A DNA stretch of 64,000 nucleotides from Bacteroidota bacterium (lineage in GTDB: Bacteria; Bacteroidota; Bacteroidia; 2-12-FULL-35-15). The notes under the pieces are model-generated. The model ran no database searches and was not told the origin of the DNA. It saw only the letters and a program-made list of their open reading frames with translations. Within the stretch, counting starts at the first letter, position 1. Each line of letters opens with the position of its first letter. The stretch is taken from NCBI GenBank assembly GCA_037131555.1, contig JBAXQU010000006.1:753-64752 (forward strand), in the 5' to 3' direction. Below, piece by piece: positions 42,075 to 57,800 of the stretch. The position numbers and the translations under genes are program-made.

Positions 42075-43316
42075 ATGCACGTAAAATTTTTTTTAAGAGA
42101 CATCAGCAAAGAAGGAGCTTATTCCAAAAAATCAAAAGAACATTTGGTAAATGCCTACTTCACTTATCATGGGCAACGTATCCGTTTGTCAACTAAGTTA
42201 AGAGTAAATAAAAATGATTGGAATGAAAAGAGAGAGGAGTTTCGAGGCTTCGGGGATGATGTGGCAACAAAGAATGCTACACTAAAAAAAATTCGACAAA
42301 AAGCGGATGGAGTTTATAATACCCTTATGTCTAAAGGAATTCCATTGACAGCTAACATTGTAAAAAAAGAAATTCTAAAAGAAATTTTTCCTGAAAAATA
42401 TGTCAAAACAGAAAAGGTTTACAATTTATTTAATTTTTTAGAATGGTATATTAAAGAAAATCCGAATAACGTAAAGCTTGGGACAATGAAGGCTTATATG
42501 CAGTTAATACCATTGCTTAAAGACATTTCAAAAAAAGAAGGAGACTTGTTTTTAGAATTTGAACAAGTAACTAATCCTTGGGAGTCTGCCTTTAAAACAT
42601 TTCTTATTAATAAAGGTCATGGAAAGAACACAATCGGAAGGCATATAAAAAATATTAAATCTCTAATGACATTGGCGTATAAGAAAAAATTGCACACTAA
42701 TACCGAGTACAGAGAATTTAAAAAGACATCAGAAGAAACCAAAGCAATTTATTTAACTGAAGAAGAAATTCTTTCAATATATAACACTGACTTGCCTTCT
42801 CACTTAGTAGAGGCGAGAGATGTTTTTGTTTTCTCCTGTTTAACTGGGCTCCGATTCAGTGATACCATAGCTTTGAGAAAGTATAATTGGAAAGGAGATT
42901 TTCTTGAAATCACAACAATAAAAACGGAAGACGCACTAAAAATACCACTTCGAAAAACAGCTAAAATTATTTTAGAAAAGTATAAAGGACAAATACCTTA
43001 TTTTTATAATCAAAAATATAATCGTCAGATAAAAGAAATTTGCTCAATGGTTGATTCTCTCAAAGTTGATGAAACATATACTATTACAAAAGGCTCTAAA
43101 CGAAAGGAAATTGTAATAAAGAAATATAAACTGGTACAAAGCCATACAGCCAGAAGAAGCTTTGCAACAAATGAATATAAAAGAGGTACAAAAACTGCAA
43201 TTATAATGGCAGTAACAGGTCACAAATCGGAACGTGACTTTTGGACATACATCCGATTAAAACAAACGGAGAAAGCTGAAGATTTATTTGAAGATTTTCA
43301 AAAAAGAGATTTTTAA
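42075..43316 (+). CDS. Tyrosine-type site-specific integrase
   Basis: C-terminal catalytic residues ...GLRFSD...HTARRSFAT...GHKSERDFWTYIRL (R, H-x-x-R, H, Y). N-terminal SAM-like domain. Confidence 0.9.
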   Translation: MHVKFFLRDISKEGAYSKKSKEHLVNAYFTYHGQRIRLSTKLRVNKNDWNEKREEFRGFGDDVATKNATLKKIRQKADGVYNTLMSKGIPLTANIVKKEILKEIFPEKYVKTEKVYNLFNFLEWYIKENPNNVKLGTMKAYMQLIPLLKDISKKEGDLFLEFEQVTNPWESAFKTFLINKGHGKNTIGRHIKNIKSLMTLAYKKKLHTNTEYREFKKTSEETKAIYLTEEEILSIYNTDLPSHLVEARDVFVFSCLTGLRFSDTIALRKYNWKGDFLEITTIKTEDALKIPLRKTAKIILEKYKGQIPYFYNQKYNRQIKEICSMVDSLKVDETYTITKGSKRKEIVIKKYKLVQSHTARRSFATNEYKRGTKTAIIMAVTGHKSERDFWTYIRLKQTEKAEDLFEDFQKRDF

Positions 43317-46828: not shown

Positions 46829-47656
46829 TCAACTAAAAATGGGTGAAAGGATAGAGTCGCTGTCTATGTTTTGTTGTATAGCCCAACGGAAAATTGTTTT
46901 TCCCTCTTTCGGATAAGTTGGCTCTAATAAAACAAAGGAATTCGTTCTCAACCTTTGTAATTGCTCAATGATGGGATGTTTAATTTCCAAAATTTCTAAA
47001 ATAAATCCTAATCTCTTTATAACTGCCTGTGATTTGAATTGCTCTGCATATTCAAAAAGCTTTCTGTAATCAATTTTATCTTTCGACTTGTAAATTGCTT
47101 TTACAATTTCTGTTATTCCACCAGCATAGCTGGGCTTGAACAAACAATCAATAAGTGTTTTCTCCAAATCAGAACATTGAACTTTGTTGAAACTATCAAT
47201 CCATGTTTTTTTATTTCCAAAAAAATGTTCTTCGTTGTGATAAATAAATTGAAAAGGAATGTTCTTTATTTTAAGTGCTGATGGCTTTATTTGTTTGCTC
47301 ACAACAATTTGTTCTTTCAAGTTTGGTTGTGTTGTTAAACTATGAATTTGAAGAGCGGAAAAATATCCGATGTAATAATTTGCATCACCAACCAAATATT
47401 GCGAAAGCAAATGCCAGTCGGGCATAAATGTTTTTGCATCTTGCTCAAAAGGAATGATGTAATAAACACCATCTTTTATTCGCATAAGCAAACCTCTCTT
47501 GGTCATATCACTTAATAATTTTTTTACTGCATCAGGATTTGAGTTCGGAAGAAGTTTATTTGCCTTGTCAATACCAAAGCAAAGTAACCCTGCTTGATTT
47601 AGTTGGTCAAGTAGTTTATTTGCCTGAAATGAAAGATTTTTATCTTTTATAGCCAT
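46829..47656 (-). CDS. AbiEi family antitoxin / transcriptional regulator
   Basis: Its stop is 1 nt from the AbiEii start. The N-terminal wHTH ...KKLLSDMTKRGLLMRIKDGVYYI is typical. Confidence 0.8.
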   Translation of the reverse strand: MAIKDKNLSFQANKLLDQLNQAGLLCFGIDKANKLLPNSNPDAVKKLLSDMTKRGLLMRIKDGVYYIIPFEQDAKTFMPDWHLLSQYLVGDANYYIGYFSALQIHSLTTQPNLKEQIVVSKQIKPSALKIKNIPFQFIYHNEEHFFGNKKTWIDSFNKVQCSDLEKTLIDCLFKPSYAGGITEIVKAIYKSKDKIDYRKLFEYAEQFKSQAVIKRLGFILEILEIKHPIIEQLQRLRTNSFVLLEPTYPKEGKTIFRWAIQQNIDSDSILSPIFS

Positions 47657-47792
47657 TTAGTGAGTTTTAAACTCACCACAAAGATACGAAACATAAATGA
47701 CATAGTGTCTTTCGGTTTCATTTTATTCTTTGCTTTGATAAGGAGTTCTATAAATCTTAATTTTTAAAAAGAAGTTCAAACAGAAAAATAAA

Positions 47793-49163
47793 TTAAAGTA
47801 AATTAATTTTTTTTGTAATCTTAACCATTCCGAATGTATCTAATTGACAATATTCAAGTAAATGTTTTCGTTGTTCTTTTTGTGTTTCCTCTGACTGATT
47901 CTTCAACTCCGAATAAATTAAACTTGCGCTACCACCATCCTGTATTGTCAAATCACCATAAGTTAATTCTGGAACAAGTACAGGTAATACCTTTTTTATT
48001 GAATACGATTCATTAAAATCTGGATGATAAAATTGCTTCTTTCGGAATGGAACCATAAGGTCAACAACTCGTTCAATCACATGATAAATTTGAGTTTCGT
48101 ATTGTGGGAAATCTCGTCCAAGTTCCTTCAAACGGCTTATCTCAAAGGTTTGATTCCAAACAATAATGCTTCCTTTGTTTCCGAGTGAAGAGAGCAAACC
48201 CTTTATTAACAATTCTCTTGGGTCATTAGTTCCATCTCCGAGAAATTCTTTGTGTTCCAATTCTGAATTTTTATTCCTTTGAATATGTAAAGAATATTGA
48301 AATGGGATTTGCTGATAAGGTCTGCTATTATTGAATTCAGGGACAGCTGGCATTATTGTTTCAAAGTCAAAATAGAATAAAGGGTATTGAAATTCGCTAA
48401 AAAATTCTTTCAAGTACTCTTTATTTATATACTCTTCAAGGTCTGAATTTCTTTCTTCCACTTCAACATTTTTCCAACAATAGTCAGAAAAGTCGCAAGG
48501 ATAAGGTTTGTCGCACTGGTCTCCCACTTCAATGATAGGTTCTATTCTGTCGGAAATCACTTTCTTTAGTTCTACAATTTTTGTTTCAATAAATTCCTGC
48601 TGCGCTTTTACTTGTTCGTGAATTGTTTGCTTTGTAAATAATTCCTGAACATTAATTTCTCCTCTCCGAACATATTGATTATTCAAGTGAACAATAAATA
48701 TATCTTCAAGTTTTATTCCTGATTTTATTATTACAAAGTACTGCAATGCAGCATCAACAATATGTTGCGACTTAACCCCCGTTGTTCCTTTTACTTCAAA
48801 AGCATACCATTTATTATCTTCTTTTACAAGAACATCAATCGCACATAAAACACCATCATAGTTAAAACACGCTTCATATATGATGTTTACGCCTTCTTTA
48901 ATTAATTGCTGAGTTTTCTCAACAGAAAGATGATATGAAAACGCATCAGGTGGTTCAGCATTAATACCTCCTGGAAAAAGTCCTTGAGCCAACAAACCAA
49001 CATTTGTTCCTGAAGAAAAAATTGATTGTTGGGCTTCATCTTCAGGATTTCTCAACTCAGGTTTGAACTTATGTAGATACAGTCGTTTCGGACATTGGCA
49101 GCCGTAAACGAATGTGGATTTTGACAGTATGTGTTTAGTGTAATTCATTAACTTATTTGACAA
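47793..49163 (-). CDS. DUF2779-type protein: Cas4/RecB-like PD-(D/E)xK nuclease with Fe-S cysteines plus a DEDD-like exonuclease domain
   Basis: N-terminus LSKSTFVYGCQCPKRLYL. The Cys cluster is CDKPYPCDFSDYC. The C-terminal half has FYFDFETIMPAVP (a D-x-E exonuclease-like motif). Confidence 0.75.
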   Translation of the reverse strand: MSNKLMNYTKHILSKSTFVYGCQCPKRLYLHKFKPELRNPEDEAQQSIFSSGTNVGLLAQGLFPGGINAEPPDAFSYHLSVEKTQQLIKEGVNIIYEACFNYDGVLCAIDVLVKEDNKWYAFEVKGTTGVKSQHIVDAALQYFVIIKSGIKLEDIFIVHLNNQYVRRGEINVQELFTKQTIHEQVKAQQEFIETKIVELKKVISDRIEPIIEVGDQCDKPYPCDFSDYCWKNVEVEERNSDLEEYINKEYLKEFFSEFQYPLFYFDFETIMPAVPEFNNSRPYQQIPFQYSLHIQRNKNSELEHKEFLGDGTNDPRELLIKGLLSSLGNKGSIIVWNQTFEISRLKELGRDFPQYETQIYHVIERVVDLMVPFRKKQFYHPDFNESYSIKKVLPVLVPELTYGDLTIQDGGSASLIYSELKNQSEETQKEQRKHLLEYCQLDTFGMVKITKKINLL

Positions 49164-49268
49164 AGATAGTTTGTTTTGTTCTATCCTTATAGGTTAAAGA
49201 ATACAAAATAAAGAATTGAGACAAGTAAATATTCTCTTGTATCAGTTGATAATCCAAGTGTTTTAGGA

Positions 49269-50021
49269 CTAAATATTGTTTTGAATTATTTCATTTGTTT
49301 GAAGTGCTCTGTTTAATAACATCAGAACGTTGCTTGGTCTAAATTGTTTTCCACGGCTACTCCTGAAACCCTCTGAATTCAACTTGTCTGCAATTTGTTG
49401 AAGAGTACTACCTGAATTGCGAAGAAGTATAATATATCCAGAAGCCTTTCTATTGTTATCGTTTAAGCTTGCCAACTCCTTTCTTCTGTCTTTACCTTTT
49501 TTTATATTCTCTTCTGTTAATCCATGTTTACTTGTATCACGTTTGAATCCTCTGTCTTTAAGGGCTTTTAAGGCTGCCTTGGTTCTTTCAGAAATTCTTA
49601 ATAATTCTTCTTCGGCTAAACTTGTTTTAAGTTTTACAATAAAAGCTGTATCGCTTGGAGCATCAGCAAATTCAAAGGTTATACCACTCTTGAGTAAAAA
49701 TTCCATAAGTAAAGAATACCTCGTTAATCGAGAGCTTTCCTTCGCTACTATTATAGCTCCATTAGTTTCAGCTAATTTTAAAGCACTAAGAAGAAGTGGA
49801 CGTTTTGATAACAAACTTTCAATGCTTACTTGTTTGTCAACCGAGATTTTATCTTTTGAACCAGCGGTTTCAACTTCTGTGAAAGAATCAATAATTTCTC
49901 CACCGACATTCTTGACAAAAAGTTCAACAGATGATTTTTGAGATTCCAAACCGAGGTGTGAAATATTTTGTTTGACGGTTGAGACTCTATAATAAGATAT
50001 GTATTTTTTGATTTTTACCAT
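49269..50021 (-). CDS. Small serine recombinase (resolvase/invertase family)
   Basis: YYRVSTVKQ catalytic Ser motif, with a C-terminal HTH (STLQQIADKLNSEGF). Confidence 0.85.
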   Translation of the reverse strand: MVKIKKYISYYRVSTVKQNISHLGLESQKSSVELFVKNVGGEIIDSFTEVETAGSKDKISVDKQVSIESLLSKRPLLLSALKLAETNGAIIVAKESSRLTRYSLLMEFLLKSGITFEFADAPSDTAFIVKLKTSLAEEELLRISERTKAALKALKDRGFKRDTSKHGLTEENIKKGKDRRKELASLNDNNRKASGYIILLRNSGSTLQQIADKLNSEGFRSSRGKQFRPSNVLMLLNRALQTNEIIQNNI

Positions 50022-50056
50022 TTTTCCAATATTAACTACGAACGTTATTATAATTG

Positions 50057-50086
50057 TATAGGTTTGCTTTTCGGAAAAAAAGAAAG
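50057..50086 (-). promoter_or_regulatory. Island promoter-like element, copy 1 (variant), upstream of the serine recombinase
   Basis: In gene orientation: TTTCTTTTTTTCCGAAAAGCAAACCTATA, 35 nt from the ATG. Confidence 0.5.
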
Positions 50087-50106
50087 AAAGTTTGAAAATT
50101 GAACAA

Positions 50107-50134
50107 TAAAAAAAGCAGCAATTAATTTTGCTGC
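50107..50134 (-). terminator. Rho-independent terminator after the 166-aa gene
   Basis: Minus strand reads GCAGCAA-aattaa-TTGCTGC followed by TTTTTTT. Confidence 0.6.
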
Positions 50135-50162
50135 CCTTTAAAAAATGTATTTTCTTTTGAGA

Positions 50163-50663
50163 TTAAAGTAATCTGAATTTTAGGTCCCTGAGATATTCTG
50201 TTCCGACAAGAAATCCTATTGGCTTTTTTCCGAAATCGGAAACAATATAAATAGTAACCATCCCTCTTTGCTTATCAAGATAATTAAAACCTTTTTTGAT
50301 GATTGTTCGAAAGTGGATGCTCTTTCTTAGATACACAATATCATCCTGTGTTATATTCCTGTTCAAAGTATAAATCGCAAAAACAATTAAGTCTGGTGAA
50401 ATCAACGCAATGGCATTATCCAAAGCTTTCTCTGCCTCATTTACGTTTGAATACCAAAAGATTCTCTCCTCTATCGTTTGAAAAAGGAACTCTGCTTCCT
50501 TCCTGGTCTCGAACTTTATTCTACCAAAACTCCGAGTCTGATTCACCACATCTACAAAGTACTCTCCGTCAGCAATGATAAGCATTACACATAATTCTCC
50601 TCCATAATATATCTTTGATTTTTCACTAAGAATTGTAATTGTCTCTTCCTCCTTCATAACCAA
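50163..50663 (-). CDS. Hypothetical protein (166 aa)
   Basis: ORF that overlaps the upstream DUF2958 gene by 10 nt, suggesting an operon. Confidence 0.5.
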   Translation of the reverse strand: MVMKEEETITILSEKSKIYYGGELCVMLIIADGEYFVDVVNQTRSFGRIKFETRKEAEFLFQTIEERIFWYSNVNEAEKALDNAIALISPDLIVFAIYTLNRNITQDDIVYLRKSIHFRTIIKKGFNYLDKQRGMVTIYIVSDFGKKPIGFLVGTEYLRDLKFRLL

Positions 50664-50998
50664 TACTTAATTTCATCGTACACATCTTTCAGTTTTATTT
50701 GTGCAATTGGAAAGTGCTCATCACGCACAATTCGCAAACCAAATGGGAGCTTCAAATTCGAAAGCTCATTCAAGGAAATCATTTCCAAGTTTGCAAACAA
50801 AGCATCACCCTTATTCGTAAAAGATAAATATCTATCTGCCTCAAAGTGTTCATATAGATACCAACAAGCCGAGCCTAAAGGGTTATAGAGCTTGCAAATA
50901 ATTTTTATATCACTTTGCCCTTTACCAGTTGCTGTCCCCTGTAAATTAAAAGCTTGCTCAATCTCTTCTGAAATCAAGTGTCTTAAATGTTGCTCCAT
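50654..50998 (-). CDS. DUF2958-like protein, common on conjugative elements
   Basis: KLYNPLGSACWYLYEH...LEMISLNEL...FGLRIVRDEHF follows the DUF2958 pattern. Confidence 0.7.
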   Translation of the reverse strand: MEQHLRHLISEEIEQAFNLQGTATGKGQSDIKIICKLYNPLGSACWYLYEHFEADRYLSFTNKGDALFANLEMISLNELSNLKLPFGLRIVRDEHFPIAQIKLKDVYDEIKYWL

Positions 50999-51015
50999 AA
51001 TTTTAATTTTTGGAT

Positions 51016-51045
51016 TATAGGTAATGGATTCCGAAAAAAAGAATC
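51016..51045 (-). promoter_or_regulatory. Island promoter-like element, copy 2
   Basis: In gene orientation: GATTCTTTTTTTCGGAATCCATTACCTATAA, 17 nt from the ATG at 50998. Confidence 0.55.
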
Positions 51046-51129
51046 TAAATGAGTCCCAGGACTCTTAATTTAGAAAATTCACAAGAGATAAAAATGAATT
51101 AAATTTGTAGTTAAACTAAGTCGAAAAAA

Positions 51130-51774
51130 ATGAAAAAACAAAAAGTAGTATACGAATACAAAGTAAAGACAATTGACTATCTAAAAGCTCTCGCACAATA
51201 TCCAAATTTTTTGAAATTAATAAACATTGAAGATAAGCCGTACAAAGAGATAATTGAGTGGGTGCTACAAAAAGAAACCAGTCTTCAGGATGATTCCTTT
51301 GTAACACCTTCTGTTAAAACACTTTCAGAAGAAATCGGCATGGACTATGCTAAAGTCACCAAGTATCTAAAATATATTTATTTTGAAATAATTGATTTGA
51401 ACAATAAACATCCAGAACTTTTTGTTAGGCAAGGCCAAATGAAGTGTTACTTTGGTTTTAAATATTTTGAATCGTCTCACACTTTTATTTTAGGGATGGA
51501 TTATTTACCCCGAATAGAAGAGCATTTCACCTTTAATTTTATCAATCCAATATTAGGAAATTCCAGCTTTTATGTTCAGCAAGTTTGGCATGACTATGAA
51601 CATTCAGGTCATAGTGTAATATTTACTATGGTTCCACGATTACCTTATAAATATATGGCTTTGCTCAAAGAAAAAGCATACTTGAATAGAGATATATCAT
51701 TTCATGAATTCTATGATTTTGAACGTAATTCTGAGCTCGAAGAAAAACTTCTGAAGCTTTACAAAACCTTATAG
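51130..51774 (+). CDS. Hypothetical protein with a possible N-terminal HTH
   Basis: SVKTLSEEIGMDYAKVTKYLKYIY looks like a helix-turn-helix. It is one of only two plus-strand genes in the small-ORF block (the other is ArdC). Confidence 0.45.
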   Translation: MKKQKVVYEYKVKTIDYLKALAQYPNFLKLINIEDKPYKEIIEWVLQKETSLQDDSFVTPSVKTLSEEIGMDYAKVTKYLKYIYFEIIDLNNKHPELFVRQGQMKCYFGFKYFESSHTFILGMDYLPRIEEHFTFNFINPILGNSSFYVQQVWHDYEHSGHSVIFTMVPRLPYKYMALLKEKAYLNRDISFHEFYDFERNSELEEKLLKLYKTL

Positions 51775-51785
51775 GTACTGTTCTT

Positions 51786-52082
51786 CTAAGATTTAATAAT
51801 ATCACAGAGCTTCCAGTAACCAAAGTCAATAATGGCATCATCGTAGCAGATGATGCTCTGCATTTCTGTTGACAAGGGACTCATCCCATTCTCAAGTACG
51901 TCTTCCCAGTTTGTCTCATTATGCTTATCAAAGAACTCTAAAGACCAATTTACAATTTCTTCAGCTGTGGAAATATACCCAGTACCTCTTTCCTGCATAA
52001 TCGGATAAAGTTGGTCTACAAAGTGGTCTCCAAGTATTGTTGCAATGAATGCCGTTTCCCGTATTTGTTCTTTGATTTCCAT
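51786..52082 (-). CDS. Hypothetical protein (98 aa)
   Basis: Start moved to MEIKEQ (52082). The track start at 52175 reads through the repeated element and overlaps the upstream gene. Confidence 0.5.
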   Translation of the reverse strand: MEIKEQIRETAFIATILGDHFVDQLYPIMQERGTGYISTAEEIVNWSLEFFDKHNETNWEDVLENGMSPLSTEMQSIICYDDAIIDFGYWKLCDIIKS

Positions 52083-52090
52083 TTTATATT

Positions 52091-52119
52091 TATAGGTCGG
52101 TGATTCCGAAAAAAAGAAA
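52091..52119 (-). promoter_or_regulatory. Island promoter-like element, copy 3
   Basis: In gene orientation: TTTCTTTTTTTCGGAATCACCGACCTATAA. It almost fills the 37-bp gap between the stop at 52120 and the ATG at 52082. Confidence 0.55.
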
Positions 52120-52392
52120 TTATCTGAACTGAAATTTATCAAGGACATCGTATTCCTCTTTTGATATTTCTTCAACTGTGGTCAGCTTTACAGCAACTGA
52201 ACCACCGTGAAAATAATACCATTGCTCTCCTGGTGTAAACTGAAAAGGTTTTTCTCCGTAAAAATTCATAGCATAATCCCTTCCGAATTTCTCTGTGCTT
52301 TTTCTTGAGGAAATTTGATTCACTGAAATAGAAGTATATTCGTATTCACCGTTTCTAATTTTTAAGGATATGAAGATATATTTTAATTTCAT
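52120..52392 (-). CDS. Hypothetical protein (90 aa)
   Basis: ORF preceded by element copy 4. Confidence 0.5.
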   Translation of the reverse strand: MKLKYIFISLKIRNGEYEYTSISVNQISSRKSTEKFGRDYAMNFYGEKPFQFTPGEQWYYFHGGSVAVKLTTVEEISKEEYDVLDKFQFR

Positions 52393-52407
52393 CTTTTTGT
52401 TTATTTT

Positions 52408-52437
52408 TATAGGTCGGAGATTCCGAAAAAAAGAAAG
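52408..52437 (-). promoter_or_regulatory. Island promoter-like element, copy 4
   Basis: In gene orientation: CTTTCTTTTTTTCGGAATCTCCGACCTATA, 15 nt from the ATG at 52392. Confidence 0.55.
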
Positions 52438-52496
52438 GACTGAATTTCTTCAAGTCCCTTCCCCCGATTAATAAGAAAACCTCAAAACTTATTAAT

Positions 52497-52910
52497 CTAT
52501 ACCTGTCGATTGCACTTGAGGTATGTCTCAGAAAACTCCATTATGTTTCTGTATTTTCTACCTCCGCTTTTATAATATACTCCATTGAGATTTGCAGGTG
52601 CTGCCTGTGTATTCAGCTTGTCAACTTCTGAAACGTGGACATAAGTTACATCATTACATAACGAATTTCCATTCATTATTTCTTCTGCTATTTCATCTAT
52701 TATTTCTTTTTCAGAATAAGAATACAACGAAATTAATGAATATGATGGAGCCAATTCGCATGGGTAGATGTGTTCGTTTGCATTATACATATAGACTCCG
52801 TATATCCGTCCACAAGCATTTGCAATATCTCCTCTCCAGTTCCTTGTTTCCTCTATTGAAACAAGTCTGAAGTCTGTCCGTTTTGCTTTATTTATTATTT
52901 CTGATTCCAT
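52497..52910 (-). CDS. Hypothetical protein (137 aa)
   Basis: ORF preceded by element copy 5. Confidence 0.5.
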   Translation of the reverse strand: MESEIINKAKRTDFRLVSIEETRNWRGDIANACGRIYGVYMYNANEHIYPCELAPSYSLISLYSYSEKEIIDEIAEEIMNGNSLCNDVTYVHVSEVDKLNTQAAPANLNGVYYKSGGRKYRNIMEFSETYLKCNRQV

Positions 52911-52915
52911 GTTAT

Positions 52916-52945
52916 TATAGGTAAAAGAATCCGAAAAAAAGAATA
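52916..52945 (-). promoter_or_regulatory. Island promoter-like element, copy 5
   Basis: In gene orientation: TATTCTTTTTTTCGGATTCTTTTACCTATA, with the TATAA ending 4 nt before the ATG. Confidence 0.55.
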
Positions 52946-52946
52946 A

Positions 52947-53150
52947 TTAATTCTCGATTTTTTTCTTTGCTATAACGTAGTTTTCAGTTAGGTCTCTGAA
53001 CTTAACTCTAATCATCTGGTATATATGTGTGCCTGATTTATTTGTAAATAAGTCAACCGCTTCCCCTATGCTATTAGGGCTTAAACATGAAACGTCTTTA
53101 CGAGTCACTTTCCCAGTTTTTTTGTCGTAGACAATTAGTTTGTTTTCCAT
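52947..53150 (-). CDS. Hypothetical protein (67 aa)
   Basis: Start moved to MENKLIV (53150). The track start at 53192 reads through element copy 6. Confidence 0.45.
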   Translation of the reverse strand: MENKLIVYDKKTGKVTRKDVSCLSPNSIGEAVDLFTNKSGTHIYQMIRVKFRDLTENYVIAKKKIEN

Positions 53151-53155
53151 AATCT

Positions 53156-53184
53156 TATAGGTCGGTATTTCCAAAAAAAAGAAA
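53156..53184 (-). promoter_or_regulatory. Island promoter-like element, copy 6
   Basis: In gene orientation: TTTCTTTTTTTTGGAAATACCGACCTATA. Confidence 0.55.
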
Positions 53185-53391
53185 CTATTCAATATCTATT
53201 TTTAAGTCCTCGAACATCTCACCAACCGAAATACCAGCACCTTCCTTTACTTCAATTTCTATTGTAAGTTTCCCTGAGTTGAAAGAATCAATCGTATTTA
53301 AAATTCCAGTAATTGCTGCTTCTGAAAGTTTTGGCACTACGTTATTTTCTAAGTGCCACTGTAGTTCTGAATTACTATGCGTTGTTTTCAT
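53185..53391 (-). CDS. Hypothetical protein (68 aa)
   Basis: ORF starting 2 nt after the upstream gene's stop, with no element between them, so probably co-transcribed. Confidence 0.45.
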   Translation of the reverse strand: MKTTHSNSELQWHLENNVVPKLSEAAITGILNTIDSFNSGKLTIEIEVKEGAGISVGEMFEDLKIDIE

Positions 53392-53393
53392 CT

Positions 53394-53777
53394 TTATATG
53401 TTATTTATGTTAAAATTATCAGCACAATATCTTTTTAATTTCAGAGCATTATAAGCATCATTGCTAAGTACCTTTTCCTGCACAGGTTGATTAAATACAG
53501 CGTGGTTTATTGCTTTTATTATTGTTTCCTGGGTTGGTATTTGTTGCCACTCCTCCTCGCAACACTTGCTCCTTGTGAAGCTTGGATTTACAGCCAATAC
53601 TGCTTGCCACAATGTTGAATCCTTACTCCTATGATTTATGATTAGTGAATAAGTATCATTCCAAGTTATTTGGTTAGGTTTATCAATTACAGTTTGTAAT
53701 CGGGCTTTGATTTCGGGCGATAGAATCCCGTTCATGTTCTTTGCAAACTCCAGGGCCAAAGTGCTTTTCTTCTTCAT
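53394..53777 (-). CDS. Hypothetical protein (127 aa)
   Basis: ORF preceded by element copy 7. Confidence 0.5.
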   Translation of the reverse strand: MKKKSTLALEFAKNMNGILSPEIKARLQTVIDKPNQITWNDTYSLIINHRSKDSTLWQAVLAVNPSFTRSKCCEEEWQQIPTQETIIKAINHAVFNQPVQEKVLSNDAYNALKLKRYCADNFNINNI

Positions 53778-53782
53778 GTCTT

Positions 53783-53813
53783 TATAGGTTGACGATTCCG
53801 AAAAAAAGGAATC
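53783..53813 (-). promoter_or_regulatory. Island promoter-like element, copy 7
   Basis: In gene orientation: GATTCCTTTTTTTCGGAATCGTCAACCTATA. Confidence 0.55.
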
Positions 53814-53816
53814 CTC

Positions 53817-54584
53817 TTAGAAACAAATTGGAATCTTAAATCCACGTTCCTGCCCATTTTCAAAGGTTCCTACTTGCAGTGTTTCGTAATTCTTTTTGTT
53901 GAAATCAAGATGCAAATTTTGTTCTCTCAACACATACATAAACCGTTCAACTGCTTTATCTGTTGTAGTTTCGTAGGTTGTGAATTTATAACGGTATGAA
54001 CTTTGGTCTTTTAGGTATCCGAACAAAAGACAGAATTTTCTCATTTTTATCTCTCTTGTTTGTCCGAAGAAACTGCTTGTAAACTCAGTCGTCTTTCTTG
54101 CACGTAGAATCTGACAGGAATCTTTGAACTCCTTTTTTGACATCATTTTGCCTGTGCTTTGACTTTTCAAATGAGGCTCATTATTGAATATTAGCAACTC
54201 ATCCACCTCCCTCAACAATTTGAAATATTCCTTGGTTGCATTTTGCACCATTTTAATCGCTTTGATGCAATCTTTGTCAGAAATGGACGCAAAGTACTTG
54301 TTTCGCTTTATATGCTCCCATATCTCATTTGTTGAGGAATTATAAGGCAAATTTGTATTCCAATCATCTTCTTTGGCAAATCCAATACCGAGGGTGTTAA
54401 ACTTTGGAAACCCAACAATGGCTTGCTCTTTGTCAACCATAACACGGAACTGCCAGTATTCTTCATCAATGGGAGGTGTAATCACAAATAATGTGTTACC
54501 AAGTTTTACATTATTCTCATCTCCGCCAAAATACTTTTTATTGACTTCTAAGATAAGTTGTGATTTTTTGTTTGTCTTTTTCAT
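53817..54584 (-). CDS. Hypothetical protein (255 aa)
   Basis: Start moved to MKKTNKKSQ (54584). The track start at 54608 lies inside element copy 8. Confidence 0.5.
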   Translation of the reverse strand: MKKTNKKSQLILEVNKKYFGGDENNVKLGNTLFVITPPIDEEYWQFRVMVDKEQAIVGFPKFNTLGIGFAKEDDWNTNLPYNSSTNEIWEHIKRNKYFASISDKDCIKAIKMVQNATKEYFKLLREVDELLIFNNEPHLKSQSTGKMMSKKEFKDSCQILRARKTTEFTSSFFGQTREIKMRKFCLLFGYLKDQSSYRYKFTTYETTTDKAVERFMYVLREQNLHLDFNKKNYETLQVGTFENGQERGFKIPICF

Positions 54585-54589
54585 GTTGT

Positions 54590-54619
54590 TATAGGTAAAG
54601 GAATCCAAAAAAAAGAAAC
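54590..54619 (-). promoter_or_regulatory. Island promoter-like element, copy 8
   Basis: In gene orientation: GTTTCTTTTTTTTGGATTCCTTTACCTATA. It sits back-to-back with copy 9. Confidence 0.55.
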
Positions 54620-54625
54620 TACTAT

Positions 54626-54657
54626 TCTTTCTTTTTTTCGGAAACTCCTACCTATAA
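54626..54657 (+). promoter_or_regulatory. Island promoter-like element, copy 9, the only plus-strand copy; drives ArdC
   Basis: TCTTTCTTTTTTTCGGAAACTCCTACCTATAA, 13 nt from the ATG at 54671. Confidence 0.55.
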
Positions 54658-54670
54658 GAATAAAAACAGA

Positions 54671-55540
54671 ATGAAAAAAGAGGACATATATACTATGGTA
54701 ACTGATAGAATCATTAGTAAGCTTAACACTGGCGTTGTGCCTTGGAACTGCGGATACACAAGCATGGCTCCACAAAATTTCCTGACAAAGAAACCTTACC
54801 GTGGAATTAATCATTGGATAACGATAAGTAATAATTTCTCTTCACCTTATTATTTATCATTCAAACAGGTGAAGGATTTAGGAGGTGCAGTGATTGCAGG
54901 TTCAAAGGGAACTCCCGTTGTCTATTGGCAAATACTTGAGAAGAAAGAAAGGAATGCGGATGGAGTTATGGAGAAAAAAACAATTCCGCTTTTGAAATAT
55001 TATACTGTGTTCAATGCTGAACAAACCACAGGAATAGACTTTCCAGTGGTAGAAAATAAGATTTCAAATATAGCTTTGCTTGATGAAGTGCTTGGAAAGA
55101 TGAATCAGAAGCCTGTTATTCGTGAAAGCCAAATCTACTCTCCATGCTACATTCCTGCACTCGATGAAATAAGAATGCCTTTAAAAAACAGCTATGAATC
55201 ATCAGCAAGATATTATAAAACTTTGCTGCATGAGATAGGTCACTGGACAGGAGCTTCAACCAGACTTAAGAGAGAAGGCATTATGAACTTTGATGGATTT
55301 GGTTCTCACAAATATAGTGTGGAGGAATTGGTTGCAGAGCTTACAGCAAGCTATGCAATGACCTTTGCTGGAATGGAGGAGCAGACGATAGACAACTCAG
55401 CTGCTTATATTCAAAGCTGGATTAAGGCTTTGCAAAACGACACCAAGTTTATTTTCAAAGCAGCCAAGCAAGCTGAACTCGCATGGAAATTTATTAATAA
55501 CGATATAGGTTGCAAGGATGAAATAAAAGAAGCGGCATAA
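54671..55540 (+). CDS. ardC: ArdC-like antirestriction protein (N-terminal ssDNA-binding DUF1738 domain + zincin metallopeptidase)
   Basis: VPWN......KKPYRGINHWI is the ArdC-N pattern. The C-terminal LLHEIGHWTG is HExxH. Confidence 0.8.
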   Translation: MKKEDIYTMVTDRIISKLNTGVVPWNCGYTSMAPQNFLTKKPYRGINHWITISNNFSSPYYLSFKQVKDLGGAVIAGSKGTPVVYWQILEKKERNADGVMEKKTIPLLKYYTVFNAEQTTGIDFPVVENKISNIALLDEVLGKMNQKPVIRESQIYSPCYIPALDEIRMPLKNSYESSARYYKTLLHEIGHWTGASTRLKREGIMNFDGFGSHKYSVEELVAELTASYAMTFAGMEEQTIDNSAAYIQSWIKALQNDTKFIFKAAKQAELAWKFINNDIGCKDEIKEAA

Positions 55541-55546
55541 ACAAAA

Positions 55547-55870
55547 ATGAAAATAATTCCGAGGTGGTTCAATCGGAAAGGTATGGTGATTGCAAGGTTG
55601 CAGTTGCTATATCTTTTCGTATTTATTATTAATAGCTTGCTCTCTCCTGTTGGATGGAGGGTGTTACATAGCATCCTCTCCCTGGCAATTGGTTATTCCA
55701 TTTACAATCTCTCCCTGAAGATGTTTCTCTTTCTGATAGGTTATATAATCGGGTTAGAATTAATATCAAACAGCTTGGTATTTCCTTTTGATTATTTTCA
55801 TCCAATTGGCAAAGAAATTCTCAAGGAAATTTATGAATTAATTAATAGCGAAAAACAGAAAGATGGTTAA
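55547..55870 (+). CDS. Hypothetical small membrane protein; coding status is doubtful
   Basis: Hydrophobic 107-aa ORF containing 2 of the 5 CTCTCCCTG motif copies, so it may be non-coding. Confidence 0.3.
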   Translation: MKIIPRWFNRKGMVIARLQLLYLFVFIINSLLSPVGWRVLHSILSLAIGYSIYNLSLKMFLFLIGYIIGLELISNSLVFPFDYFHPIGKEILKEIYELINSEKQKDG

Positions 55871-55946
55871 TAAATGTATATGATATAGTGTTGCTATGAC
55901 TCTCCCTGAAATAGGTGAAATAATTAAGCAGGAATTAGCAAAGAAA

Positions 55947-56183
55947 TTACTTGACGAATTTCCTGTAATATTCCCAGAAATTAACTGCCACTTCTGTTGG
56001 AAATAAAATCAAGTTTTTGTACTCTGTTGTTTCGATAAACGGTTCCAGTTTTTTCATCAATCGGAAGCTCTCTACCTTGTTATTGCAGTGAAGGATTTGT
56101 TGCAGTGTGAAGTGGTCAACGTAGAGTCGCTTGTTTATTAAATATTGTACAAAGCTATATTCGCCTGTTGGAAGTTGTTCCAT
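55947..56183 (-). CDS. Hypothetical protein (78 aa)
   Basis: ORF with an upstream TTATAAATAGTCGAAAAAAA variant motif. Confidence 0.4.
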   Translation of the reverse strand: MEQLPTGEYSFVQYLINKRLYVDHFTLQQILHCNNKVESFRLMKKLEPFIETTEYKNLILFPTEVAVNFWEYYRKFVK

Positions 56184-56548
56184 AGTTTTTTTGTTATAAA
56201 TAGTCGAAAAAAATAAATGTTACAAAACATTATCTTATAAAAGAAGGAAATTTTAGATGTTGCAATTTTATCCTGGAAAACCCAACCTCTCCCTGGAGCG
56301 ACCCAAATGGGCGTTTTAATGAAACATATCATTACTAGGTTTAAGCACGTTTTGTATTCCGAAATATCCGCCTCTCCCTGGACACTGGTTCCTTAAATAA
56401 GACCCCATTGGCTTAATTTAGTGGCGGTAATGAAGGGGGTAATTTTAGGGCAGGGGCTTAAATAGACCCCCTAAATTTCGTAAAGAAAAAATGTGTTATG
56501 AAAGATTATATTTAGCTATTTATAAGCAGAGAAATCAACAAAAGAATT

Positions 56549-57139
56549 ATGAAAGAAATTGAAGTAAAAACATCTGGAAATAAAGAGGGAGAAAACACTT
56601 ATTTATACTTGAGCACTGTAAAATTTGAGCACCTCAAATATTTGGGAAATATTGAATTTAATGTGGAGCTATTTGTGGCCAATAAAAAGGATGGAAATGA
56701 AGTCTATTTTATTGATGAATTTAACATGAGTGATGTCTTCGAACACTTGAGTCGAAAAGCAACCATAGAAAAATTAATTGAAGTGATGAATGATTACGAT
56801 TTGTTAGTAAAAGAATATGTCCTTTCTACTGAGGAGTTCAGACTTCAATCAGTCGTTGGCAAGGATGTGTTAATTCAAATGACTGGTGAAAAGAAATCAT
56901 TAAAAATGCTGATGGACAAGCTGTATGACTTATGGGATATTCCAAACTTGACTGTGACACTTGAACTTGTTTCAAAGATTCGTTCTGGTCGTCTTCTTGA
57001 GATTTCAGGCGCTGATATAAAAATTGTGAGAGACATGCCTTCTCCCCATTACCTTATCTATTGGCTAATTCAGGACTTCGAAAAAAGAGTGATTGGTAAG
57101 GCCCAAGAAATTTATCCTCAAAGGTTTTATATGTGCTAA
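56549..57139 (+). CDS. Hypothetical protein (196 aa)
   Basis: ORF only. Confidence 0.5.
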   Translation: MKEIEVKTSGNKEGENTYLYLSTVKFEHLKYLGNIEFNVELFVANKKDGNEVYFIDEFNMSDVFEHLSRKATIEKLIEVMNDYDLLVKEYVLSTEEFRLQSVVGKDVLIQMTGEKKSLKMLMDKLYDLWDIPNLTVTLELVSKIRSGRLLEISGADIKIVRDMPSPHYLIYWLIQDFEKRVIGKAQEIYPQRFYMC

Positions 57140-57201
57140 TAATTTCTTGGAACAACAAAAAATGATACTGCCTTTTGAATTAAGCTGTATCCTCCTTCTT
57201 C

Positions 57202-57549
57202 CTATTCCCTGTATGTGTAACCAAGTTCTGCGAAATATTTCTCGCACATAAATTCAATGAAACCCTCTGGGGAAAAATGTTCCTCATCTGCAAAATAACG
57301 CAAGTAGAGCAAAATTAAATTCGGGTGCAGGTCTCTGTTCTGCACGTGATGGAATGCTGGGTTCCCATTGTCAAAGAAAAAGAATTCGTCCTCTTGTGTG
57401 CCAGATTTCAACGTTACTTTGGCAATCTTCTTTGCATTGCTTCGGAATACATTATATGTGATTCCATGCTTGATACTGCCCACTTTCGTTGGTCTTCCAC
57501 TTTTATTTAGGAGAATTATTTCTCCGTTTTCGTTTACTAAATTTTTCAT
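57202..57549 (-). CDS. Hypothetical protein, paralog A of the retron-adjacent small protein
   Basis: Shares collinear blocks with the 59492-59857 product: LLN..G.PT.V...K.G.TYN, KKI.KVT.KSG..EDEF.FF..G.PAFH and EGFI.FMC. Confidence 0.55.
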   Translation of the reverse strand: MKNLVNENGEIILLNKSGRPTKVGSIKHGITYNVFRSNAKKIAKVTLKSGTQEDEFFFFDNGNPAFHHVQNRDLHPNLILLYLRYFADEEHFSPEGFIEFMCEKYFAELGYTYRE

Positions 57550-57776
57550 AATTCTTTTTTCTTATAAATAGTTAAGAAAAAGTGAAAAACTACGTTACAA
57601 TACAAAAAGACTCTTGCTTAAAAGCAACAAGATTGGGTTTCCCGAACTACAAATTCCACAATATTGAATCTGATATATTATACATATTCTCAACAATAAA
57701 ATATCTACTTCAGTATTGCATATTAAACCTATTTAATAAGATGTCAGGTCTCCGTTTTTAATTCCAAAAATATAGT

Positions 57777-57784
57777 TACATTTG
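57777..57784 (+). promoter_or_regulatory. Bacteroidota-type -7 box (TACATTTG) upstream of the PD-(D/E)xK operon
   Basis: Matches TAnnTTTG, 17 nt upstream of the ATG at 57801. Confidence 0.4.
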
Positions 57785-57800
57785 ATAAAAATTTAAAACC

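Follow-up and report, generated by a model that had tools for sequence, protein, structure and literature searches.

A 30-bp element placed directly before the small genes of one module in an integrated Bacteroidota element is read here as a module-specific promoter, which would keep the −33/−7 layout of Bacteroidota promoters with other letters in both boxes; we put the probability of this reading at roughly 60%. An upstream block, (A/T)TTC and then a T-tract (motif positions 1–11, about −34 to −24), would be followed by a free spacer of 11 nt and by the box ACCTATAA (positions 23–30, about −12 to −5), with the transcription start predicted 5 nt downstream of the box, where position 35 is a conserved A. 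An ATG at position 35 would give a leaderless mRNA, and the other genes would have A-rich leaders of about 2–18 nt. Since almost all small genes in the ArdC-linked array have a motif copy of their own, they would be independently started units under one common control, and the factor reading the box may be (i) an alternative or element-associated sigma-like factor, (ii) an activator, or (iii) a repressor. If this reading is true, the motif is different from the normal promoter of the host, and its control is private to a mobile-element module.

Motif copies in the window and in related elements

The window, by which we mean the whole 64,000-nucleotide stretch analyzed, contains exactly nine matches to TTTCTTTTTTTCGGAAWC-N4-ACCTATAA in a pattern search with up to three mismatches, compared with none in 100 of 100 dinucleotide-preserving shuffles. 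These are the nine copies, eight on the minus strand and one on the plus strand, that a first-pass annotation had described. On the minus strand, variant copy 1 (50056–50085), which ends in ACCTATAC, lies 34 nt before the ATG of the serine recombinase gene; copy 2 (51015–51044) lies 16 nt before that of the DUF2958 gene (50654–50998), copy 3 (52090–52119) 7 nt before that of g3 (98 aa, 51786–52082), and copy 4 (52407–52436) 14 nt before that of g4 (90 aa, 52120–52392). The next four minus-strand copies each lie 4 nt before an ATG, namely copy 5 (52915–52944) before g5 (137 aa, 52497–52910), copy 6 (53155–53184) before g6 (67 aa, 52947–53150), copy 7 (53782–53811) before g7 (127 aa, 53394–53777), and copy 8 (54589–54618) before g8 (255 aa, 53817–54584). 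On the plus strand, copy 9, TTTCTTTTTTTCGGAAACTCCTACCTATAA (54628–54657), stands 13 nt before the ArdC ATG (54671), back-to-back with copy 8 at a distance of 9 bp, again as first described. With copy 1 set apart, the TATAA-to-ATG distances are 4, 4, 4, 4, 7, 13, 14, and 16 nt, in agreement with the earlier values. The 68-aa gene downstream of g7 (53185–53391) and the 164-aa gene that overlaps the DUF2958 gene (50163–50657) are without a copy of their own.

A weight-matrix scan added a tenth, degenerate copy, ATTCTTTATTTTGTATTCTTTAACCTATAA, on the minus strand at 49187–49216, upstream of the DUF2779 nuclease gene (47793–49148), and found nothing comparable in the remaining 54 kb of the window. 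The copies are confined to a shared module (47793–57139) comprising DUF2779, the serine recombinase, the small-ORF array, ArdC, and a 196-aa gene, and the 42 kb of host DNA within the window contain none. Within the window, the motif is thus not the genome-wide repeat that the first-pass annotation had allowed for, nor is it scattered in the manner of REP or MITE sequences. Of the genomes of 185,579 species representatives and the contigs of IMG/VR, none has more than one copy.

The first-pass annotation had also suggested a search of related elements, and relatives, located in metagenomes through protein similarity, do carry the motif. Three related elements have 15–19 copies each, among them L133 with 19 copies (ArdC 72% identical) and L163 with 15; L162 has a divergent motif pair (ArdC 64% identical), and copies are also present in L128–130 and L138–139. 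In the window and in the relatives alike, every copy is oriented like the gene next downstream, the relatives' copies occupy the same gene junctions as those of the window, and orthologous copies precede ArdC in L133, L138, L139, L162, and L163.

Conserved blocks and the predicted start site

Across the 50 unique pooled copies, among which those of related elements share ancestry, so that statistics on them overstate independence, only two blocks are kept: TTCTTTTTTT (positions 2–11; 84–100% conservation) and ACCTATAA (positions 23–30), the conservation of ACCTATA in this set being fixed by our own selection step. In the upstream block, the C of (A/T)TTC is present in 48 of the 50 copies. Of the two-part motif first described, these blocks stand, but its CGGAAWC, typical of the window element and L163, is not conserved in L133. 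No such conservation is seen in the 11-nt spacer or the leader, which differ freely even among orthologous putative ArdC promoters.

Position 35 is an A in 48 of 50 copies. Where the ATG does not itself lie there, the A is still found in 35 of 37 copies, as compared with 10, 24, 20, and 15 of 37 at positions 31–34, and A-richness sets in abruptly at this point. The excess at position 35 has a binomial P of about 3e-7 against local A content with copies that are not independent, and it is less surprising than it looks, given the A-rich leader. The gap between box and ATG is never 0–3 or 5 nt in the pooled copies, and it is exactly 4 nt in 13 of them. This 4-nt minimum, the spike at 4 nt, and the conserved A together fit leaderless or near-leaderless transcripts, with a predicted start for copy 9 at the A at 54662 and for copy 8 at the A of the g8 ATG (54584), the latter giving a leaderless mRNA. 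Counting against such short leaders, only about 3.7% of Bacteroides leaders are shorter than 10 nt (PMC7366714).

Longer leaders would result if transcription started inside the motif, near position 15–16, with the T-block TTCTTTTTTT as a weak −7-like box and ACCTATAA lying in the first 8–15 nt of the transcript or just downstream of the start, as a repressor operator, as when leading-region genes undergo zygotic induction, or as a 5′-UTR signal for translation control. We consider this arrangement improbable, although it is the strongest competitor. Position 15 is an A in 41 of 50 copies and position 16 in 32 of 50, the leaders would measure 19–38 nt, matching the usual Bacteroides length (mode 23, median 32 nt; PMC7366714), and the T-block ends in TTTG in some copies, like the host box. 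Near-invariance of ACCTATAA is, moreover, typical for a protein operator: with 8–9 bp nearly invariant, the box exceeds most sigma −10-type elements in conservation, and it could equally be an operator. However, the T-block is without the TA of TAnnTTTG, and positions 12–22 vary and include C and G, whereas host-type boxes in these sequences are followed by A-rich leaders. An internal start would also leave unexplained why the ATG keeps at least 4 nt from the box, why the 4-nt spike is so sharp, and why A-richness begins abruptly at position 35.

Relation to host-type promoters

The first-pass annotation had found the motif unlike the host TAnnTTTG box, and indeed no such box overlaps copies 2–9, where the box is ACCTATAA. 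In place of the −33 TTTG of sigma-ABfr promoters, the motif has (A/T)TTC, while its spacing would fit the −33/−7 layout with the start at the predicted site, position 35. An E. coli-type sigma-70 consensus (TTGACA, 16–18 nt, TATAAT, the second hexamer having A and T at its positions 2 and 6) called none of the 10 copies in a scan of 47500–57800, and its total matches fell below the shuffle mean.

Real host-type boxes adjoin the motif in the same island, which marks the motif as a separate class. TAnnTTTG precedes the PDDEXK_4 gene (57777), where it had been noted before the PD-(D/E)xK operon, as well as the 214-aa gene (51100), AbiEi (47686), and DUF2779 (49168). In the case of DUF2779, the exact box TATCTTTG (49161–49168) lies between the degenerate copy and the ATG, an arrangement that recurs in L133. 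Similarly, a near-match, TAATATTG, lies between variant copy 1, whose form is conserved in L133, and the ATG of the serine recombinase. Because the motif copies of both genes are degenerate and host-type boxes stand nearer to their ATGs, their membership in the regulon is doubtful, including that of the recombinase, which had initially been tied to it.

As for a regulator, the 214-aa HTH-like protein put forward by the first-pass annotation is ruled out as a dedicated one, since L133 has 19 motif copies without a homolog; a homolog that is 47% identical resides in a polysaccharide-synthesis locus without motif copies. Within the module, no sigma-like or DNA-binding protein was recognized.

Gene junctions and the need for promoters

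Several copies begin where the preceding gene stops: copy 6 adjoins the 68-aa stop codon on its 3′ side, and copy 3 adjoins that of g4 in the same way. Terminator-like hairpins were called upstream of copies 1 and 2 only, the latter at 51051–64, so that the T-run of the motif is not in general the tail of an intrinsic terminator, whose G+C-rich hairpin would directly precede it. A stem-loop directly upstream of copy 4 was read by eye and was not called by the terminator scan.

The divergent gap between g8 and ArdC measures 86 bp and contains only copies 8 and 9, and the DUF2958 gene is located beyond a convergent gene and a hairpin. A promoter must exist at both places, neither of which has a TAnnTTTG box, and the motif is the sole conserved sequence there, which supports the promoter reading. 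The first-pass annotation had proposed an element-specific promoter or regulon, with an alternative sigma factor, an element-encoded activator or repressor, or expression on entry as candidate modes of control; the motif's restriction to the module, its co-orientation, its non-host box, and its position as the only conserved sequence where a promoter is needed all stand, while promoter function, along with the start site and leaderless translation, is predicted from comparative footprint and geometry.

The divergent pair (54589–54657) forms an imperfect 69-bp palindrome, which takes up the greater part of the 86-bp gap. As single-stranded DNA, it would fold into a hairpin of ∼30 bp (ΔG −14.5 and −16.9 kcal/mol; z −4.2 and −5.6), which is expected from any inverted pair of the same motif. 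The Rfam 15 covariance models found no meaningful family, and their lone match, a sub-threshold miRNA on the divergent pair, is an artefact of the palindrome.

Where co-directional genes are tightly packed, the motif takes up the space between them, often from the stop codon onward, which would also suit an intercistronic element acting at the RNA level within a single long operon mRNA, as a processing site or as the target of a translational regulator or a ribosomal factor, with no initiation. A U-rich tract with A-rich sequence downstream of it likewise suits Shine-Dalgarno-independent initiation in Bacteroidota. Such an element is nevertheless unlikely, and more so than a start inside the motif. 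RNA folding of the copies gave z-scores of −1.2 to +1.3 with no stable or common structure, and two rigidly spaced blocks with a free spacer resemble a DNA–protein site. Further, the distance to the ATG varies from 4 to 22 nt, which is unfit for a ribosome-positioning signal, and the g8–ArdC gap and the DUF2958 gene would be left without the promoters they need.

Cassette replacement at the motif

The arrays are collinear but mosaic, with gene order differing between elements and with duplicated cassettes in L133; g5 is common to all three related elements. The shared module set recurs in L133 within an element having an unrelated integrase. Between the window and L163, homology is lost immediately past one box and picks up again at position 1 of the following copy. 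The swap of the g6 and 97-aa genes lies between two motif copies, so that the g6 cassette replacement is bounded by copies 6 and 5. Given that the same 30 bp stand at every gene junction, the motif most likely also serves as a seam for cassette swapping between related elements.

These exact boundaries, together with the changed gene order and the duplications, raise the question of a recombination site run by the adjacent serine recombinase, in an integron-like system with another enzyme and with promoter activity as a secondary property. The recombinase gene (49269–50021), which has a variant copy of its own, is located at the array end, and its product is 94–95% identical between the window and L133, compared with 50–82% for the array genes. 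Sites of resolvase/invertase-type serine recombinases, however, have dyad symmetry and a central crossover core, and the motif has neither: judged from the logo, the conserved blocks TTCTTTTTTT and ACCTATAA are neither palindromic nor the reverse complement of one another, and neither an attC-like nor a serine-recombinase dyad is present. Strict orientation and ATG spacing would be unnecessary for such a site, and 30 bp of near-identity suffice for homologous recombination, as in the PeSLs (PMC2839356). We therefore regard a dedicated recombination site as very unlikely. A selfish or neutral MITE/REP-like repeat, or a leftover of serial duplication, without a function in expression, would account for a short repeated sequence in intergenic DNA and for the duplicated cassettes of L133, but it is the least probable of all, since the motif precedes unrelated genes, is absent from host DNA, has constant orientation and a constrained ATG distance, and is kept at 50–82% shared-protein identity while spacer and flanks diverge.

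Comparison with known systems

In an integron, a repeated site separates the single-gene cassettes of an array and a recombinase gene stands at one end, and the module resembles it in all of these respects. The site here, however, lies 5′ of each gene without attC-like symmetry or a hairpin, the enzyme is a small serine recombinase and not IntI, and each cassette apparently has its own, predicted promoter. Promoter sets read by phage sigma-like factors, such as T4 late TATAAATA with gp55/gp33 and those of SPO1 gp28 and gp33/34, share with the motif a nearly invariant short box that is private to one mobile element, stands before many genes, and is unlike the host consensus; a sigma-like protein is recognized in those systems and none in the module.

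ArdC and many small genes are also features of plasmid leading regions with their Frpo/ssi single-strand promoters (Samuel et al. 2024; PMC11541004), and the hairpin of the divergent pair would rebuild both boxes as a duplex on single-stranded DNA. Frpo, in contrast, are long folded structures that mimic the sigma-70 −35/−10 boxes, whereas 8 of 10 copies here are single and without a fold, a hairpin arising from the divergent pair only, and the element yielded no genes for conjugation or a relaxase.

Bacteroides promoters have elements centered at −7 and −33 (PMC7366714), and the two blocks of the motif would match those of sigma-ABfr promoters (−33 TTTG/−7 TAnnTTTG) in their spacing and, given the proposed start, in their distance to it, with TTC and a T-tract in place of TTTG and ACCTATAA in place of TAnnTTTG. 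The strong middle promoters of the Cellulophaga crAss-like phage phi14:2, which are read by host RNA polymerase, show the same tight order of an 8-nt box, 4–5 nt, and an ATG (TATCTTTG-N4-ATG and TATATTTG-N5-ATG).

The PeSL (promoter-early stem-loop) regulatory cassettes of T4-type phages (Arbiol et al. 2010; PMC2839356) differ from the motif in that (i) they match the host sigma-70 consensus, whereas both boxes here depart from the host consensus; (ii) they carry an obligatory stem-loop terminator and a Shine-Dalgarno sequence, whereas here the stem-loop is limited to some copies, a Shine-Dalgarno sequence is lacking, and leaderless mRNAs are predicted for many genes; and (iii) their carrier is a lytic phage and not an integrated Bacteroidota element. 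In both systems, however, a short conserved cassette, predicted here to be a promoter, fills the stop-to-start gap between small genes (non-essential in the PeSL case) in a variable array. The PeSL array is a hyperplastic one of ORFans, in which single-gene modules are replaced, deleted, or duplicated as the copies recombine, and module exchange with breakpoints in the cassettes is likewise what the window shows against L163 and what the mosaic arrays display.

Motif copies in the ArdC-linked array

We read the 30-bp element that precedes the small genes of the ArdC-linked module, with a probability of roughly 0.6, as a module-specific promoter of host-like geometry and non-host boxes, which would give leaderless or very-short-leader starts and would also form the seam between exchangeable gene cassettes. 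A pattern search of the window returned exactly the nine copies listed in the first-pass annotation (50056-54657; all but one of them on the minus strand), and 0 of 100 shuffles contained any match. The common orientation toward the next gene claimed there was borne out on reading the flanks, as were the TATAA-to-ATG distances of 4, 4, 4, 4, 7, 13, 14, and 16 nt, with 34 nt for the variant copy 1. Scanning with a weight matrix made from copies 2-9 added a tenth, degenerate copy (49187-49216, minus strand) before the DUF2779/PD-(D/E)xK gene, and no comparable copy was present in the other 54 kb of the window. Only two array genes, of 68 aa (53185-53391) and 164 aa (50163-50657), have no copy of their own, and each of them directly adjoins or overlaps its upstream neighbour.

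The DUF2779 and serine recombinase genes are the two largest genes with degenerate copies. A host-type -7 box, TATCTTTG (49161-49168, minus strand), lies between the degenerate copy and the DUF2779 ATG, and a near host-type box, TAATATTG (50027-50034, minus strand), lies between the motif copy and the recombinase ATG. The proposed membership of the recombinase in the motif regulon is doubtful, as is that of DUF2779: the variant recombinase copy is degenerate and is followed by the near host-type box. Expression of the two genes may depend on the host promoter or on both signals. Further, a weak motif-like CTTCTTTTATTTCATCCTTGCAACCTATAT, below the weight-matrix threshold, runs antisense within the 3' end of ArdC (55503-55532, minus strand); it is probably a chance match and might conceivably act as an antisense promoter.

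Relatives of the module and distribution of the motif

The search of related elements proposed in the first-pass annotation, for which relatives were located via protein similarity, found copies at their gene junctions. The same element as in the window is present in ENA ERZ27300129 and Logan SRR7053525, and close variants are present in loci L128-L130 and L138/L139. Among the more diverged loci, L133 is a complete element of ~18 kb flanked by two host genes, L162 carries an ArdC 64% identical to that of the window, and L163, found through its 196-aa protein, adjoins a Por_Secre_tail host gene. L133 holds 19 motif copies, L163 holds 15, and L162 holds one divergent pair, all of them facing the next gene.

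The window and L133 share DUF2779 (82% identity), the serine recombinase (94%), DUF2958 (50%), g3 (61%), g4 (58%), g5 (76%), ArdC (72%), and the 196-aa protein (30%), whereas the L133 integrase is unrelated to that of the window (26%) and the remaining backbone has no detectable match. Because only the module is common to both, the motif moves with the module and not with one integrative backbone. The serine recombinase (49269-50021, minus strand; L133 2488-3231) is 94-95% identical, against 30-82% for the other shared genes and unrelated integrases, so that this gene is either exceptionally well conserved or was recently transferred on its own. Distant ArdC relatives (43-45% identical) and plasmid homologs (ArdC at most 43%, recombinase at most 37%) were set aside as comparison loci, their contexts being unrelated; the closest plasmid homologs of the recombinase are from Hymenobacter, Spirosoma, and Rufibacter. 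These homologs, the integrase type, the host-type TAnnTTTG boxes, and the Por_Secre_tail gene beside L163 make a member of Bacteroidota the most likely host. No ArdC relatives were found in IMG/VR.

None of 185,579 GTDB species-representative genomes contained more than one match to the exact motif, TTTTTTTCGGAA-N6-ACCTATAA; the five single matches among them look like chance, and IMG/VR had no match. The generic TTCTTTTTTT-N11-ACCTATAA matched 18 IMG/VR loci singly, none of them with a repeat, and further CCTATAA sites in these loci lay in unrelated contexts. Background sequence from metagenome loci amounted to ~0.7 Mb, and a literature search for the motif sequence returned irrelevant matches only. 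Confinement of the motif to the island, as first proposed, holds for the ~42 kb of host DNA inspected; with no copy in that DNA, a genome-wide repeat is ruled out for the window.

Conserved blocks and start-site signature

A pooled alignment of 50 unique copies, in which positions 23-29 are fixed by the selection criterion, resolved two blocks, namely positions 2-11 (TTCTTTTTTT, 84-100% conserved per position) and positions 23-30 (ACCTATAA, with an A at position 30 in 38 of 50). Between them, position 15 is an A in 41 copies; positions 12-14 and 16-22, covering the CGGAAWC that had been taken for a conserved core, vary freely in L133, and that core is accordingly abandoned. In the orthologous predicted ArdC promoters of four elements, both blocks are kept, while spacer and leader have diverged. 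Judged from these alignments, the motif is a DNA site of two blocks at a fixed distance, which stands out as a phylogenetic footprint.

Position 35, which is 5 nt past the box, is an A in 48 of the 50 copies and in 35 of 37 after removal of the 13 copies that have the A of the ATG there, compared with 10, 24, 20, and 15 of 37 at positions 31-34 (binomial P ~3e-7 against the local A content, for copies that are not independent of one another); the sequence is A-rich from position 35 onward. Moreover, 13 copies have a box-to-ATG gap of exactly 4 nt, gaps of 0-3 or 5 nt are absent, and the remainder span 6-22 nt, with a few longer. A start site at position 35 accounts for the lower limit of the gap, the 4-nt spike, and the conserved A together. 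With +1 at this position, ACCTATAA would extend from -12 to -5 and (A/T)TTC from -34 to -31, and nearly every gene of the ArdC-linked array would have its own transcript with no leader or a very short one. In the main rival reading, transcription would instead start within the motif, the conserved ACCTATAA then being a shared operator or a 5'-UTR signal; we consider this unlikely, position 35 being the start that accommodates both the gap distribution and the A.

The gene layout bears on the promoter reading at two places. The 86-bp gap between the start codons of the divergent g8 and ArdC genes contains only two back-to-back copies, and the DUF2958 gene follows a convergent gene and a hairpin resembling a terminator, with its motif copy as the only candidate signal. 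No host-type box was found in the g8/ArdC gap or before the DUF2958 gene; in the compared loci, such boxes lie 12-26 nt before the ATG. From this layout, a promoter is predicted to be needed at both places.

Candidate reading factors and the divergent pair

The 214-aa protein, earlier suggested as a regulator, is absent from L133 despite the 19 motif copies there and loses this role. It has four homologs only, one of which (47% identical) belongs to L126, a polysaccharide-biosynthesis cluster without mobile-element genes. The proteins common to the window element, L133, and L163 are g4, g5, ArdC, and the 196-aa protein, of which only ArdC has a recognisable domain. Pfam, NCBIfam, and PHROGs gave no match for the 196-, 189-, 115-, 107-, 78-, 214-, and 255-aa proteins, nor did a PDB sequence search for the 196-, 214-, and 115-aa proteins, and the AlphaFold models of the 196-aa (pLDDT 33) and 115-aa (pLDDT 44) proteins were too poor for structure search. 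A host alternative sigma factor is an equally possible reader of the motif, and the ~42 kb of inspected host DNA carries no copy.

At a slim probability, the module would have a transcription code of its own, in which g4, g5, or the 196-aa protein is a small sigma-like or RNA-polymerase-retargeting orphan, diverged beyond recognition, that directs Bacteroidota RNA polymerase to TTC-T7/ACCTATAA promoters. On entry into a new cell, anti-defence and establishment genes would then be transcribed in a burst as leaderless mRNAs, and the palindromic g8/ArdC pair would serve the incoming single strand as a hairpin promoter. This divergent pair is an imperfect palindrome. In each of the four elements tested, its single-stranded DNA gives a ~30-bp hairpin, with dG between -13 and -20 kcal/mol and z between -3.9 and -6.8. 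The hairpin would restore both boxes as duplex and would leave the start region single-stranded; it is also the trivial result of two inverted motif copies, and we give a role like that of Frpo promoters low weight.

Other identities were rejected. The sigma-28 consensus, which we take to be TAAAGTTT-N11-GCCGATAA, resembles T-tract-N11-ACCTATAA, but sigma-28 boxes usually lie 6-7 nt from the start site, against an ATG spacing of 4 nt here, and the Bacteroidota are, to our knowledge, not known for FliA. An E. coli-type promoter was ruled out by a promoter scan, an intrinsic terminator by hairpin calls upstream of copies 1 and 2 only (a further stem-loop, seen by eye, adjoins copy 4), and a structured RNA by z-scores of -1.2 to +1.3, no common fold, and no meaningful Rfam match.

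Cassette exchange at the motif

The arrays of the window, L133, and L163 are collinear but mosaic, with element-specific genes interspersed among shared ones (g8, g7, the 68-aa gene, g5, g4, g3, and DUF2958); in L133, the order of g3 and DUF2958 differs and cassettes are duplicated. Paralogous cassettes at L133 5897-6686 and 7773-8760 (80% identity for the 107/103-aa pair and 73% for the 142/86-aa pair) indicate a segmental duplication within that array. The window and L163 are homologous across the 68-aa gene and the motif as far as the ATG; there, an unrelated 97-aa gene in L163 takes the place of g6, and homology restarts at position 1 of the next copy. In L128, the junction falls within a motif copy. 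These swaps require no more than homologous exchange between the 30-bp repeats, and a role for the conserved serine recombinase is conceivable. A palindromic recombinase site was rejected, since the logo of the 50 copies lacks the symmetry that such enzymes use.

The surrounding island

The island starts in the window with a tyrosine integrase at 42075 (Arm-DNA-bind_5 and Phage_int_SAM_5 architecture) and includes DUF5131, AbiEi/AbiEii, DUF2779, the small serine recombinase, the block of small orphan genes with DUF2958, ArdC, PDDEXK_4, a reverse transcriptase, and a DnaB-like helicase, followed past the window end (L131 1-5856) by WYL, AAA, GmrSD_N, and RNase T genes. Across window positions 42075-64000 and L131 1-5856, defence-type genes are abundant (AbiEi/AbiEii, PDDEXK_4, and the reverse transcriptase with a 121-aa partner), and no relaxase or conjugation genes were recognised. 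Host-type boxes precede PDDEXK_4, AbiEi, and DUF2779, as well as the 214-aa gene (51130-51774, plus strand; TAAATTTG), which lies mid-array in the opposite orientation.

To the right of ArdC, a second upstream motif, (A)CTATTTATAA, is found at 56187-56213 (minus strand), 56518-56527 (plus strand), and 57555-57581 (minus strand), at distances of 9 nt (78-aa gene), 26 nt (196-aa gene), and 11 nt (115-aa gene) from the ATG, with an A 5 nt past TATAA in all three copies. It occurs three times in L138 and in the upstream regions of the same genes in L163, and L133 has a longer variant, ACTATTTATTTATAA, upstream of the 196-aa homolog. This motif may represent a sister promoter class (A-TT-TATAA versus A-CC-TATAA). 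The interval from ArdC to the 196-aa gene contains five direct, irregularly spaced copies of CTCTCCCTG(A/G)(A/C) (55678-56382, plus strand), of which two fall within a doubtful 107-aa ORF (55547-55870); these copies could be bound by a protein or could be the iterons of an origin of replication or transfer.

Relation to known systems

Apart from the TAnnTTTG type and a few ECF sigma motifs, little is known to us of the promoter classes in Bacteroidota, and we know of almost nothing on how establishment and anti-defence genes of mobile elements in this phylum are switched on. With its host-like geometry, the sharply defined 30-bp motif is a candidate second promoter code, from which leaderless mRNAs, a rarity in Bacteroidota, are predicted. 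If the factor reading it were found, factor and motif together could be put to use in Bacteroidota as an orthogonal switch for gene expression; proof of a dedicated reading factor, or of promoter activity on a single strand, would make the finding weightier.

In Bacteroides, promoters have elements whose centres lie at -7 and -33 (PMC7366714), and the motif would share this geometry, given +1 at position 35, while differing in its letters. Bacteroides leaders usually measure 23-32 nt, with <10 nt in only ~3.7% (PMC7366714). The middle promoters of Cellulophaga phage phi14:2, which are read by host RNA polymerase (bioRxiv 10.1101/2020.03.07.982082), have in the phage sequence the same tight layout of an 8-nt box, 4-5 nt, and the ATG (TATCTTTG-tagt-ATG for g110 and TATATTTG-tataa-ATG for g070), so this layout exists in the phylum. 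The divergent pair would resemble the Frpo promoters of plasmid leading regions (PMC11541004), in that duplex boxes would be rebuilt on a single strand. The same exchange behaviour has been described for the PeSL promoter cassettes of T4-type phages (PMC2839356), which are repeated promoters tied to cassette shuffling; the motif belongs to an integrated bacterial element. Element-specific promoter sets and PeSL-like regulatory cassettes are known already, and the motif would be a variant of both.
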